From a virus (lineage: Duplodnaviria > Caudoviricetes): a stretch of DNA of 64,000 bases. The DNA lies in the IMG/VR virus record IMGVR_UViG_3300031555_004271, positions 1-64,000 of that record. One strand, given 5' to 3'. Below, piece by piece: positions 14,507 to 49,484 of the stretch. Position 1 is the stretch's first letter, and each line of letters begins with the position of its first letter. The translations under genes were made by a program, and so were the position numbers. The notes under the pieces were generated by a model. The model was not told the origin of the DNA and ran no database searches. It worked only from the letters and a program-made list of their open reading frames with translations.

Positions 14507-14518
14507 AACAAAGTATTA
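14507..14518 (+). promoter_or_regulatory. Putative late promoter AACA-N6-TA
   Basis: aaca-aagtat-ta upstream of an RNAP gene. Confidence 0.6.
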
Positions 14519-14552: not shown

Positions 14553-16297
14553 ATGCCGAGAGTATTAACTGATCAAGAAAAGAAATACCTTCTATCATTA
14601 AAAAAAGAGGATATGTCACTTGATTTACTAAAGGACTTATTTGCAGTTTCTCAGAAGAATCCTAAAGCTAAGTTTGAACCAAATGATAAAGTTCAGTTTA
14701 AAACTAAAGAGTATTATAATGCTAAACTAGTTACTACTACAGTTGGTAGGTTCATTGTAAATAAATGCTTATTAGAACCAAAGATTATCGAACTAATTGG
14801 TTATCAAGATATAATTATTGATAAAAAGTCTATGAAGGGTCTAGATCAGAAAATCATAGATGAGTGTTTATTAACTGAAAAGATTACAATGACTGATTAC
14901 CATGACTATCTAGACCAATGTAACTGGTTAGCATATGGTTGTACTTACTTTATTGTACCTTCTTTGGATACTAGTATGTTTATAGTAGATAAAGAAATTT
15001 TAGATATGAAACAAAGACTAATTGAGGAAAATAAAGAAGCTGTACAAAATAACGATGTTAGTACAATTTTCAATATAGAACAAGAGCTATTAAAAGCTTC
15101 TAAAGAAAAAGTAAAGGATATTCCTGGATACCAAATCTACGCATCTGGTGCTAGAGGTAGTTTTGATAACAACTACAAGAACAGCTGCCTCATGAGAGGT
15201 TCTGTTATGAACTTCACTGATCCATCTAAATTTGAAGCATCTATGGCATCCTTAGTAGATGGAATTCCCAAAGAAGATTTCCATATTTATGCCAACATTT
15301 TAACTGCAGGTACTTATGCAAGAGCTAAACTATTACACTTGGTTCTTAAATTCTTTAATTGCTGGGAGAGTAACTTACTTAATCAGCAGCTTATATAAAA
15401 TCGTAAAAAAAGAGAGCCTAGTTGCAGCTAAACTCTCTTTCTCATTTAGAAATTATCGAATGTAATTCAATACACTATGTACTTTACTATTAGTATTTTT
15501 ATAGTGGATTGCATTCAATAATTCTTCCTTCTCCTTTTCGTTAATGTTTAGGTTGGAAACTGTTACCATTAGCTTAAAAGCATCAGAATTATCTTGTCGA
15601 ATTTTCATATCTTATATCAACTCCATTCTGTGAATAAGCAAGATTTGTATCACGATAAAACACTTATCCTTATCCCATCAGAATTATAATATATAGATAT
15701 AAAAAATTTCTTTACGGTTTTATATAAGTTCAACGACTAAATAGAATCTGAATAGATTCTAAATAAGAATTACTAGAATTTTCTAGTAAAGATATAGTCT
15801 TATCTTTAGTGTAATCTAAAGTTTTATAGCATAGGACTAATAACCCTATGCAAAAATGTATGAAGAATACTGAAGTTGGTGGTTATCTAGTAAAACAGAG
15901 TCGTTCAGGCTATCAACATCTAATGTTAGACGAAAAAGATTCTGATTGTGGAACTAAAAAGTTCCTTGAGATACTACTAACTGATAAAAATAAAGGCTTA
16001 TTCCTATTAAGATGGATACAGGATTCTGATGGAAAGTTAGTTCTATTAGATGCTGATAATGTAAAATCCTATATTGGAAAGAAAATTAGAATTAGATCTC
16101 CTCTATATTGTACCAATGATAGAATCTGTAGTAAATGTGCAGGTGAGTTGTATTATAAACTTGAAATGCCAAATATTGGCTTAATTGGTGACCGTATAGC
16201 CAGTACTATCATGCAGAAGTCTATGAAACAATTCCACGACAGTACTATCAAGACAACTGTCATCGACTATGAATCTCACTTAGAGAGAATCGGTTAA
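14553..16297 (+). CDS. rpoC: RNA polymerase beta-prime C-terminal-part subunit (probably virion RNAP), spliced: join(14553..15326,15863..16297), 402 aa
   Basis: Splicing restores bridge helix TYARA|KNTEVGGYLVKQ, followed by SDCGT, RSPLYC..ICSKCAG and KQFH; the track splits it into two ORFs. Confidence 0.85.
15405..15440 (-). terminator. Terminator of the intron-embedded antisense gene
   Basis: minus RNA AGAGAGUUUAG-CUGCAA-CUAGGCUCUCU-U6; G.U pairs form only on the minus strand. Confidence 0.75.
15453..15608 (-). CDS. 51-aa ORF inside the intron P6 loop, antisense to the intron
   Basis: MKIRQDNSDAFKLMVTVSNLNINEKEKEELLNAIHYKNTNSKVHSVLNYIR; ggagttga RBS of the same form as the amidase gene; own promoter and terminator. 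Confidence 0.65.
   Translation of the reverse strand: MKIRQDNSDAFKLMVTVSNLNINEKEKEELLNAIHYKNTNSKVHSVLNYIR
15686..15700 (-). promoter_or_regulatory. Putative early promoter inside the intron
   Basis: minus atatctatatattat. Confidence 0.55.
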
Positions 16298-16304
16298 TGT
16301 AAAA

Positions 16305-16347
16305 AAAATTGACTTAATACCCTATAAAAAGGTATTAAGTCAATTTT
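16305..16347. terminator. Bidirectional terminator
   Basis: aaaattgacttaatacc...ggtattaagtcaatttt. Confidence 0.85.
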
Positions 16348-20810: not shown

Positions 20811-22423
20811 ATGAAAACCGAATTTGTAAATCTAGAAAGTTTGTATGATCCAGAGAGAGTTATTACAAATCCACAACCACTAACAAAGGAAAAGACTTTC
20901 TCCGATGATGGTCTTTTCTCAGAGAAACTATTTGGTAAGAACAACAGTGACAATGACCTACTATCATATTCTTGTGAATGCGGTAAATACAAAGGAAAGT
21001 TCTTAAGAGGTTTTACTTGTGACGAATGTAAAACTGAAGTAAAGTTCCAAGAACCTATGTTAGAGAAGCTAGCATGGATTTCTCTAGGTAAGTATCACAT
21101 TATCAATCCCGTATTCTATTATGAAATTGCTAAACTAACATCTGGTGTTCAGAAGTTAAATGACATCATTTCTTATGATAAGAAAATTGACAAAGATGGT
21201 AACATTATTGATGATGAAAAAGGAAAGTTCAATAATTCTGGTCTAGTATTTTTCAAGGAGAATTTCTTTGAGGGCGAGAAGATTCTAGACTATCTATATG
21301 AGAATTCTAAATATAAGAACAAAGATACTGTGTATAATCTGTTACTAGAACATCAGGATAAGATCTTCCTACAACATATTCCAGTATACGACACTCTATT
21401 GAGACCTGCAAGTGTGACTTATAAGGACAAACCTGTGTTTAAGTTTGATGAGATCAATAACTCCTATAACTTCATCATCAAACTATCTAACATGATTAAC
21501 AAAGAATCTAAGGATTTTGATTTAGTTGTACTACCTAACTTGTTCAACATTCAGAATAAGATGATTCTAGTATTTAATAAGATTATCGAAAATCTTGCAG
21601 GTAAGAGTGGCTTTATCAGATCCTCAGTGCTCGGTTCTAGACTTAACTATAGCAGTCGTTGTGTTATTACACCTATGGAAGCTGGTTATGATGTAACCGA
21701 AATCGTATTCCCTTATCTAGCATTTGTTGAACTGTATTCCTTCCAGTTAATCAATATGTTAAGTAAGCTAAAGAAGATTTCTATGTTAGATGCACAAAGA
21801 ATTGTATATGAAGCACAGGCTAATTTCAATAGAGAGGTTTACAATCTATGTCTAGAATTGGTTAAGAAAACCAAACATGGATTGTTAGTAATAGGTATTA
21901 GAAACCCGACAATTGCAAGAGGATCTGTACAGGTACTTCGAATTGCTCATGTAAAGGAAGACATTTCAGATTTAACAACGTCAGTTCATAACTGTATCTT
22001 AGAGTTATGGGGTGGGGATTGAAATTTCGTAGTCGTCTGTGTTAGTAATAATACAGAGTATCATTTCAAGAATTGCTGGAAAACCTTAAAAGATGATCAG
22101 CATCCAGTTATATACTGGTTCAACGACTAATACCTTAAGAATTTAGGGTTAGTATGAAACATTCTTTATAGAATGAAGATATAGTCTGAACTCTATAGTT
22201 ATATAGAGTTTGTAAGTCTAATAAACTTACTTCAACATGTAAATAGTACGATGGTGACGTTGTTAACTTCTTCCCACTAATGGATAATGAATACAAGACT
22301 GAGTTCTACAGAGTTTTCAGTCCTGATAAGATGTTCATTAGTAACAATACTGGTGCATTTAATGCTAAACTTTCTATTGACCGTGATCAAGTTATTGGTA
22401 TTCATCAGTTTAATCTAGACTAA
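20811..22423 (+). CDS. rpoC: Non-virion RNA polymerase beta-prime N-terminal subunit (AR9 gp270-like), spliced: join(20811..22019,22247..22423), 461 aa
   Basis: FSDDGLFSEKLFG, CECG..CDEC zinc site, RLNYSSRCVITP, RNPT; splicing gives catalytic GGD|YDGDVVNF. Confidence 0.9.
22020..22246 (+). ncRNA. Group I intron (227 nt) inside the catalytic DxDGD motif
   Basis: IGS ucgua-Guc pairs the 3' exon uacga (P10) and 5' exon gaU (P1); P aauugcugga 22071, R guucaacgacua 22118, P8 cauucuuuauagaaug, S 22176, terminal G 22246. Confidence 0.9.
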
Positions 22424-47532: not shown

Positions 47533-47616
47533 TCACAAAGGTCTCTCACTTACATAATTTACATCTAAAATATCTTGAGTACGGTTTGTTTTCATATATA
47601 GGGATGGTGTATACAT
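47533..47616 (-). CDS. 27-aa peptide MYTPSLYMKTNRTQDILDVNYVSERPL
   Basis: aaaggag RBS 9 nt upstream, early promoter and terminator flanking; below the track cutoff. Confidence 0.55.
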   Translation of the reverse strand: MYTPSLYMKTNRTQDILDVNYVSERPL

Positions 47617-47702
47617 TTTAAAACACTCCTTTGTAAACTAATGTTCCTATAGAGTTAAAGAACTAGTTTACGAATTTTGAAAGGTTAACTCTTAGTAACT
47701 CT

Positions 47703-47736
47703 TTAATGATATATAGATATAAAGACTAATAATGCG
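47703..47736 (-). promoter_or_regulatory. Putative early promoter with a CGCATT box
   Basis: minus cgcatt-N15-tatatatcattaa. Confidence 0.6.
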
Positions 47737-47748
47737 TAAAGATTCTTC

Positions 47749-49484
47749 TTAATCTCTAGTTAGAGTGTATAATGTCTGAATACCCTCATTACGAAGAACT
47801 CTAGTAGTTTTACCTGTAACGTCTAGTAGGTATTTAGATGAGTTAATCAACTTTTCACATTCAGCATTTGCTTCTTGTGAGTAGACAGATCTTAGTGAAA
47901 CCGTGTCACCGTCAAACAATAATCTTATGCTTTAGAATTGTTAATTCTAAAATGCTTTGTATTTCAATACAAAGATGAGACTATATCTTTATATTCTCAT
48001 TTTCACTATACTTATAGTGTAAATTAGTCGTTGAACTAGTATAATTCTAGCTGCTGATTATCCTTTAGGATTTTCCAGCAATTAAAGAACTTTATAGCGA
48101 ACTTTTATGGTTAATCCGCTCCCAATGCTTCCAACATGGTATTATGAGGTATAATGGTGTCAATATAGTTGATATTTTCATCTATAACAGGACTATCCTC
48201 ACTCCTAGTAATTACAGGATACTCATCATAGTATTTATTGGCAATCTCAATCTGTTGAGTCTTATAAGTAGTCATTATCTTGATTCTACTAGGGTAAATA
48301 CTTTGATAGTTTTCAATAGGAAATCGAGTAACATATACATGTTTATCTTTACATACTCTAGTAGCGACAATATAGATAAGATCTAGTAGAGTAAACTGTC
48401 TTTTAAGCTCGTCTTGGAATAGATTTAATGGAGTATCTTTTACACTACCATCATCCATCTTAACAGGAACTAAAATAGGGTCTAGTCTGTTATCAGGAGA
48501 TTTGATGTAAAGATTCAACATTCCCTTGATCTTCTCAGTTGTAAACTTGGACATTGGATTCACCAGTGTATAGTACTTTCCATTAGCAGCTTTAAGTTCA
48601 CGTACTGAAGCAAAAGTTTCTCTAGCAAAATTATCAATCTCATATTGGAAGAAAGGATAGAAAAGGTTACATAAATGGGATAAAGGAATACCAGTATATG
48701 TAAACTTTACTAACTGATCTGCAGGTTTATTGGAATTAACACGACCTGCTGAGATAACACCTCTAGTACTATAGTCCACTGTCTTGCCGAGCAGACTATT
48801 CTTGAGAAGTCCACTCTTACCCTTAATATAGCTAGTCAAGTATTCATAAATCTCAACTAATTGTTTCTGTAATCTACTTTCAGTAATATGACCCATAAAA
48901 TCAAAGTCACTATTAGAACTAGCTAGGGAAATTAGATTAGCATACATTTTGTTAATCTCATCTTCAGAAACTTTACCATGGTCTAATTTCTGTATATTAG
49001 AATCTCGGTAGGATGCAGGAATTACCAACCAGTACTTGACAAAGATCTCATCAATATCTAACTTGTTAAGTAAGTCTATAGTTCTATCACGTTCACCAGA
49101 TCCAGATTTTTTGAACTTTAGTTTCTTAAAGTTGTCATACAACCAATTAATACCAGTATTACCATTTACATTGTCGGCAACTAACTCGCCTTTCTCATTA
49201 ATTGAGAAATAACCACTACCATCAATGACTCTGACAAAGTTTCTATTCATCTTAGTAAGTCTCTGGTATAATAAAGGATGTAGAAAATGTCCTTTTAAAT
49301 CTATATATCCGAATAAGGTTCTTCTATCATAACTACCAACTTGACCAAAGATTCTATAAGAAAGTAGACCGTCATCAGTAGGATACCATCCTTGATCGAA
49401 TCTAATTGGATTAGTAACTTCCTGTAAATTGTTTACTTTTATGAATTTTTCTAGGTTACAAATATCTATCTTCAAAGGAAACAT
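47749..49484 (-). CDS. rpoC: Virion RNA polymerase beta-prime N-terminal subunit, spliced: join(48114..49484,47749..47916), 512 aa
   Basis: DDGLLSYRIFG, KGKSGLLK..LLGKTVDYSTRGVIS, VTRFP; splicing gives LGAD|FDGDTVS. Confidence 0.9.
47917..48113 (-). ncRNA. Group I intron (197 nt) inside the catalytic DxDGD motif, no P8 evident
   Basis: P1 gcggaU/Guucgc, P 48075-83, Q 48051-59, R 48025-36, S 47978-89, terminal G 47917. Confidence 0.9.

Follow-up and report, generated by a model that had tools for sequence, protein, structure and literature searches.

The usual view of phage group I introns is that they carry either a homing endonuclease or no cargo at all. An intron in the virion RNA polymerase (RNAP) gene of the virus record IMGVR_UViG_3300031555_004271 (IMG/VR) raises the question of what else such an element can carry, and in which orientation. 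The window analyzed here (64,000 nucleotides) consists of the first 64 kb of this 85.8-kb record, which is judged 33% complete, and has a G+C content of 28.7%. Its closest isolates are the Bacillus jumbo phages AR9 and PBS1 and the Staphylococcus jumbo phages MarsHill and S6, and its source is an uncultured AR9-like jumbo phage. An initial annotation, made from the sequence alone, had described a group I intron in the virion RNAP gene with a P6 stem enclosing about 300 nt and, on the minus strand of this insert, a promoter motif, a hairpin leader, a ribosome binding site (RBS), a 51-aa open reading frame (ORF) and a strand-specific terminator. We found all of these minus-strand elements at the places described. 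The best explanation, which we consider probable, is that the P6 loop acquired a self-contained backward early unit that encodes a small helical protein.

A group I intron in the virion RNA polymerase gene

The ORFs at 14553-15398 and 15848-16297 both match PHROG 2962 and, since they hit consecutive parts of the profile (positions 66-295 and 295-433), represent two pieces of one gene. The corresponding AR9 protein, gp264, is annotated as the C-terminal β′ piece of the virion RNAP. Exon 1 of the β′-C gene (14553-15326, plus strand; 258 codons, ending in U) shares 43% identity with residues 7-261 of gp264 and exon 2 (15863-16297, plus strand; 144 codons and the stop codon) shares 47% identity with residues 264-401, the two exons being contiguous in this alignment. 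Between them lies a group I intron of 536 nt (15327-15862, plus strand), which is of an IA2-like phage type. Its removal restores the conserved reading frame, as judged against PHROG 2962, AR9 gp264 and a more distant IMG/VR homolog (L140). The latter is intron-less and continuous across the junction, and the position of the junction is therefore fixed.

The identity of the intron was established with the Rfam family RF00028 and with orthologous introns of two sister phages (L138 and L139). RF00028 gave nothing at the gathering threshold on the whole window; a local search gave 25 bits on 15711-15821, under the cut-off of 50, as the match is broken in two by the loop insert. The cargo-free ortholog L138, which occupies the same site and aligns with the window intron throughout, reaches 56 bits against the same cut-off, and its RF00028 alignment puts P6 immediately ahead of the J6/7-P7 motif. 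P1 (15320-15347, plus strand) is formed by the exon end (15320-15326) and an internal guide (15341-15347), with a U.G pair at the splice site. Two of its pairs differ on both sides in L139 (contig 3300031555_004294) with the pairing retained, and the P7.1 and P9.1 stems of this ortholog are altered on both sides as well. P7 (15733-15739, plus strand) follows the P6 3′ arm and J6/7, the conserved phage group I core motif formed by J8/7 and the P7 3′ strand is located at 15789-15799 (plus strand) in the local RF00028 match, and the last intron base, G15862, is kept in both orthologs. With the exon matches, the P1 covariation and the score of L138, the intron described in the initial annotation is a group I intron within the virion RNAP β′-C gene; self-splicing is predicted.

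An insertion in the P6 loop

The P6 stem is formed by a 5′ arm at 15390-15407 and a 3′ arm at 15711-15728 (both plus strand), the latter being directly followed by J6/7 and P7 according to both the fold and the RF00028 alignment of the ortholog. It comprises 18 bp and encloses 303 nt (15408-15710), in agreement with the initial estimate. In the minimum-energy fold of the sense strand, this stem closes the domain (z = -5.7 versus shuffles). A single G.U pair of the stem would become a C.A mismatch in antisense RNA, and the 5′ arm overlaps the reverse complement of the terminator U tract described below.

The enclosed loop, which holds the antisense cassette, is extra relative to the orthologous introns that occupy this site in the complete genomes of two sister phages, 3300029305_004950 (320 kb) and 3300031555_004294 (299 kb). 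Both sister introns have a short bare P6 hairpin and no cargo, and in the three-way alignment of the window, L138 and L139 the window carries about 300 extra bases exactly in the P6 loop. Exon 1 of the window is 87% identical to that of 3300029305_004950 and 81% identical to that of 3300031555_004294, and the genome nearest to the window is the 320-kb one (87%, versus 81% and 83%). As both sisters are cargo-free and the window is closest to one of them, the simplest reading is that the cassette is probably an insertion gained in the window lineage. A metagenome scan gave no cargo-free allele of this exact intron.

A metagenome contig of 1.2 kb (L136 1-320) matches the window exactly through exon 1, the cassette and P8, and diverges fully where the J8/7-P7 motif is expected. 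It is a variant that bears a different insertion, or else a chimeric assembly of related introns.

Three further introns with the same core are found in the record, two of them compact and located in other RNAP genes, and one in the terminase gene. The compact introns (22020-22246, plus strand; 47917-48113, minus strand) are free of cargo and interrupt RNAP subunit genes (PHROGs 2987 and 2986, respectively). In both, P6 is a 4-bp hairpin, which illustrates the bare state of the slot in the same genome.

A backward unit with its own promoter and terminator

The cassette contains, in order on the minus strand, a promoter, a hairpin leader, a Shine-Dalgarno sequence, a 51-codon ORF and a terminator. 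The early-promoter-like site (15679-15700, minus strand) comprises the core TATATATTAT (15695-15686), six bases and a predicted start G at 15679. The experimentally mapped early consensus of AR9 is a 13-base AT-rich motif followed by six bases and a G at +1 (PMC5312081); the candidate agrees with 10 of the 13 bases and has the matching spacing and start G. In BLAST, the stretch also matches sequences annotated as early promoters in AR9 and phiR1-37, on the strand that is expected for a minus-strand promoter. Genome-wide, a regular expression for TATATAT-type motifs is not enriched (28 sites versus 23 ± 6 under a Markov model), but 22 of the 28 fall in the 10.5% of the genome outside called ORFs of at least 60 aa (introns included) and mostly face the next gene. 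It is thus the placement of these motifs, not their number, that is non-random. From the match to the consensus, 15679-15700 is a candidate AR9-type early promoter, predicted to be used by the virion RNAP.

The predicted transcript opens with a 71-nt leader (15609-15679, minus strand) that folds into a 5′ hairpin (-10.1 kcal/mol) and carries the Shine-Dalgarno sequence GGAG at 15624-15621. Downstream of the ORF (15453-15608, minus strand), an intrinsic terminator is located at 15405-15443 (minus strand). Folding of both strands indicates that it is strong on the minus strand only: on that strand the RNA folds into a stem of 16 bp (-18.8 kcal/mol) with U7 after it, while the same region in the plus-strand RNA reaches -11.9 kcal/mol and has no U run. 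The 51-aa ORF is flanked in this way by its own predicted promoter and terminator, and no second ORF of at least 35 aa was found in the P6 loop.

The ORF looks coding, with a codon usage typical of the genes of this phage. A codon-usage score trained on the long genes of the phage amounts to 0.247 per codon, compared to 0.261 on average for real small genes and no more than 0.219 for any of 86 spurious ORFs. The encoded protein matches no Pfam or PHROGs family, in line with the initial statement that the cargo is not a homing endonuclease. Searches with tblastn against phages and the phage's own record, as well as searches of the sister genomes, AR9 and MarsHill, gave no homolog, and neither a word search of 5.8 billion proteins and the IMG/VR loci nor exhaustive HMMER (1.84 billion representatives) and ESM Atlas searches gave any homolog beyond the protein itself. 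AlphaFold2, run without an alignment, predicts three helices (pLDDT 70.7), for which Foldseek against the PDB returned generic three-helix bundles only. The ORF is identical letter for letter in six contigs from different samples; the samples with such contigs include 3300029705, 3300032167, 3300024270 and 3300028242 of IMG and ERZ27248436 of ENA. In the two contigs with readable DNA the whole cassette is unchanged, though their exon 1 differs from that of the window.

Recurrence of the backward layout in other introns

The layout is a recurring one. We found it in at least 11 other intron loops, in the terminase intron of this genome and on five further contigs. The shared order is P6 3′ arm, promoter, RBS or none, cargo, hairpin with U run, and P6 5′ arm. 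In eight tabulated cassettes the promoter, whose core and placement are those of the window cassette, is located 15-36 nt inside the P6 3′ arm, and the U run of the terminator continues into the P6 5′ arm. The cargo varies in size between 50 aa and a four-gene operon, and there are units without any ORF.

A related group I intron interrupts the terminase large-subunit gene of the same record, beyond the end of the window (G000:C1 ~81580-82270; L019 15580-16270). Within its 14-bp P6 stem lies a unit on the minus strand that shares the promoter core of the window cassette and likewise has a hairpin leader, an RBS (AAGGAG) and a terminator. The G+C content of this cassette is 0.36, above that of the genome. 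The encoded cargo protein (96 aa) has a single membrane helix and an acidic tail; a homolog search with it found only the protein itself. Orthologs of the terminase cassette in three IMG/VR contigs retain the promoter and the leader stem as well as the N-terminal half of the protein, and the orthologous proteins differ by indels in multiples of three. The conserved N-terminal half and the indel pattern together indicate that the terminase cargo is under protein-level selection. The ends of the window and terminase cassettes share an identity of 0.64-0.69, not clearly above that of shuffled AT-rich sequences (mean 0.58-0.59, maximum 0.67-0.75); common descent of the cassette ends, with transfer between introns, is plausible from this comparison.

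Other introns of the phage group differ in their cargo. In contig 3300029305_008869 (L024), a terminase intron occupies a different site and its unit lacks an ORF; the two terminase introns of L228 have cargoes of 50 aa and 89 aa, respectively. In the 320-kb sister genome 3300029305_004950, a prohead-protease intron (L195 763-1836, plus strand) carries a 348-aa Myb-repeat protein (Pfam PF00249, E = 5e-25), a second intron (L215 10119-11312, plus strand) carries a 397-aa Myb-repeat protein, and a third (L215 7654-9321, plus strand) carries an operon of four ORFs (148, 118, 193 and 68 aa). Both Myb-repeat proteins comprise about eight Myb-like DNA-binding repeats. The P6 loops of L186 and L176 hold backward promoter-terminator units that, like that of L024, contain no ORF of at least 35 aa (the longest being 28 and 33 aa). 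The L024 and L186 cassettes have no Rfam or tRNA match and may encode an RNA; the L176 insert (830 nt) is devoid of long ORFs in both orientations when read with code 11. Two more contigs with the layout (L283 and L293, with ORFs of 106 aa and 132 aa, respectively) came from a looser metagenome scan, which gave no relative of the window cassette. In a set of about 110 IMG/VR loci that share this intron core, by contrast, most of the long P6 inserts contain sense ORFs of 130-300 aa, which is the usual endonuclease pattern.

Proposed working of the unit

Promoter activity, transcription timing, translation and any benefit to the phage are inferred in the following scheme. Early in infection, the virion polymerase would read the unit, yielding a minus-strand mRNA of about 275 nt and the peptide. 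Late in infection, the β′-C gene would be transcribed in the sense direction through the unit, which would be passable because the terminator is weaker in this direction and has no U run. The 18-bp P6 stem would then join the ends of the loop, the ribozyme core would fold, and the intron would be spliced out along with its cargo. The backward orientation would be the reason why a unit with promoter and terminator is tolerable inside a gene: a sense-oriented unit would truncate the host mRNA at the terminator and drive exon 2 early.

P6 would be the one ribozyme loop that tolerates large inserts, and the cassette may be regarded as a moron-like unit (see the last section), which the intron may protect from deletion and allow to spread with it. 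The initial annotation had proposed such a safe harbor for an early accessory gene. The comparative data support this idea, as the sister introns are cargo-free and other introns in the phage group hold unrelated backward units.

The predicted antisense RNA (~15679-15405) covers only the inserted loop and the inner end of the P6 5′ arm, as its start lies 32 nt inside the P6 3′ arm and its terminator adjoins the P6 5′ arm. The positions of start and terminator would thus confine this RNA to the loop, without pairing to the ribozyme core or the exons. A further terminator (16305-16347, minus strand) closes the upstream early gene array of the minus strand and shields exon 2 from transcription of this array. 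Given the loop-confined RNA and this terminator, the phage seems to keep both exons and core free of antisense transcription. The timing switch that had been proposed along with the safe harbor, an effect at the RNA level, is not needed to explain the data.

Weighing the alternatives

Several points weigh against a protein-coding early unit. Position 3 of the 13-nt AR9 motif is a C in the candidate promoter, and an AR9 promoter-like site with this very change (g057) is inactive (PMC5312081); a C at this position is frequent in the intergenic motifs of the window phage itself, which are only putative promoters. The Shine-Dalgarno spacing is long (12 nt ahead of the ATG at 15608), the protein is without a homolog in any database searched, and the composition of the cassette (G+C ~0.30, the same as its surroundings and the genome) gives no sign of a foreign origin. 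In addition, an ATG ORF of at least 51 aa occurs in 4.1% of the dinucleotide shuffles of the loop, so that the ORF alone is only marginal. What speaks against chance is that other introns again show promoter, RBS, ORF and terminator in this order.

The working product might instead be the antisense RNA, which would form a duplex in the loop of the late pre-mRNA and delay splicing, and with it the supply of this polymerase subunit, for as long as the early RNA persists. With about 275 bp, the duplex would keep the P6 arms apart or attract RNase III; at full length (15405-15679) it would span about 77 nm with 31 unpaired bases to the 3′ arm, a geometry that we consider incompatible with P6 closure. 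The ORF-less units of L024, L186 and L176 suggest that a transcript alone can be cargo, and many early RNAs of AR9 peak at 20 min, overlapping late transcription (PMC5312081). The terminator, however, keeps the RNA off the ribozyme core and the exons, the sister phages manage their orthologous introns and genes without any cassette, and the β′-C gene already has a late-type promoter motif. Moreover, the cargo elsewhere is clearly protein-coding and comprises up to four genes, which would be needless for an antisense regulator, and the 51-aa ORF has the codon usage of a coding sequence. A regulatory antisense RNA is thus a rather unlikely product of the unit.

A broader version of this idea would make P6 a general cargo slot of AR9-like jumbo phages, in which cassettes are swapped between introns and antisense RNAs gate late splicing. 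Intron homing would then carry between phages those cassettes with similar ends, one end made up of promoter and P6 arm and the other of terminator U tract and P6 arm, and the loop duplex would stop P6 from closing in the genes for the virion polymerase, the terminase and the prohead protease. If this were true, the output of late proteins would depend on the decay of early RNA. We are doubtful of this combination of slot and gate and consider it unlikely.

It is equally improbable, in our view, that the insert is a decaying or neutral passenger derived from recombination between introns, with a 51-codon frame that is a leftover or due to chance, and that it is tolerated since P6 still closes. 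The missing relatives of the ORF, its rate of occurrence in shuffles (4%) and the suboptimal spacing of its ribosome site would all fit such a passenger, as would the ORF-less cassettes in related contigs and the restriction of the cassette to one phage species (six near-identical contigs). Nevertheless, the core, spacer, start G, leader hairpin, Shine-Dalgarno sequence, ORF and 16-bp terminator are all intact and in order, the codon score exceeds that of every spurious ORF tested, and the two readable contigs are unchanged across the cassette though they differ in exon 1.

Finally, the reading of the ORF as a degenerate remnant of the homing endonuclease gene that mobilized the intron was rejected as hardly credible: P6 is the usual place for an endonuclease, as the mostly sense ORFs of 130-300 aa at the ~110 loci illustrate, and an antisense endonuclease gene is known in phage LittleE (PMC3706429), but the ORF has no similarity to any nuclease family and no structural match, is not a truncated frame but complete from start to stop codon and served by a ribosome site, a promoter and a terminator of its own, and is, at 51 aa, far below the size of any known endonuclease.

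Neighboring features

The sequence at the intron site (15300-15330 / 15863-15890) resembles the β′ bridge-helix region of cellular RNA polymerases, and a GGY motif just past the junction presumably corresponds to the bridge-helix motif of Escherichia coli RNAP β′. Conserved sites such as the bridge-helix region are typical homing sites. In the sister phage 3300031555_004294, a second group I intron is located near the 3′ end of the β′-C gene (L139 4360-4500); it is absent from the window gene.

Upstream of the β′-C gene, a late-promoter-like motif (AACA, six bases, TA; 14507-14518, plus strand) follows the late consensus of AR9 (PMC5312081) and may represent the late promoter of this gene, as judged from the consensus match.

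A free-standing mini-unit is found in the spacer after an intron-split RNAP gene (47533-47720, minus strand). It consists of a TATATAT-type promoter near 47715-47706, the RBS AAGGAG, a 27-codon ORF (47616-47533) and a G+C-rich terminator. It has the layout of the intron cassettes, yet is located between genes.

Implications

The cargo of the window intron and its relatives consists of ordinary accessory genes arranged as complete backward units and comprises small peptides, a membrane protein, Myb-repeat proteins and an operon. Self-splicing introns would in this way be a vehicle that spreads early genes between co-infecting phages, and the accessory cargo would give selection a reason to keep a nuclease-free intron. 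Such units escape notice if an annotation joins the pieces of split genes or treats introns as non-coding gaps. The P6 loop could also serve as a neutral insertion site for the engineering of large phages.

Comparison with known systems

The morons reported by Hendrix and colleagues are said to be autonomous promoter-gene-terminator units that were added between genes of otherwise collinear phages. Like a moron, the window cassette is a self-contained unit that is present in one phage and missing at the same place in its closest relatives. Unlike morons, it is located inside a ribozyme loop of an essential gene rather than between genes, and its composition is no different from that of the genome.

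In the T4 td intron, the I-TevI gene is located in the P6 loop (reviewed in PMC2988022). The window intron shares with td the phage IA2-type core with the same J6/7-P7 and J8/7 motifs, as well as a cargo that has its own promoter and is looped out of P6 by a closing long-range stem. The td cargo is, in contrast, a sense-strand GIY-YIG endonuclease gene that is expressed late and is not an independent terminated unit.

A related phage is AR9, in which a late virion-polymerase gene (g189, virion RNAP β-N) is likewise split by group I introns (PMC5312081). The gene g190 within a g189 intron differs from the window cargo, as it encodes an HNH homing endonuclease on the sense strand and has no annotated terminator of its own. 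The only early-promoter motif inside an AR9 intron is in the sense orientation and drives g190; a scan of AR9 for the 11-base core gave no antisense early-promoter motif within any intron.

Genes opposite to the strand of the host gene have been described inside group I introns. The initial annotation had taken a sense-strand nuclease as the established cargo of such introns, a view that does not hold, since antisense endonuclease genes have been published. The capsid intron of mycobacteriophage LittleE encodes an antisense LAGLIDADG-like homing endonuclease, gp14 (PMC3706429), and I-DirII in the rDNA of Didymium is an antisense homing endonuclease gene with its own promoter (PMC3073962). Antisense homing endonuclease genes in introns and the sense-strand g190 of AR9 are thus known already. 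A literature search, although incomplete in its coverage, gave no description of non-nuclease, self-terminated antisense units in phage introns. The window intron shares the opposite orientation of its gene with LittleE gp14 and I-DirII. Unlike these two, which are endonucleases for intron mobility, its cargo is a homolog-less 51-aa ORF, and its relatives carry a membrane protein, Myb-repeat proteins and an operon.

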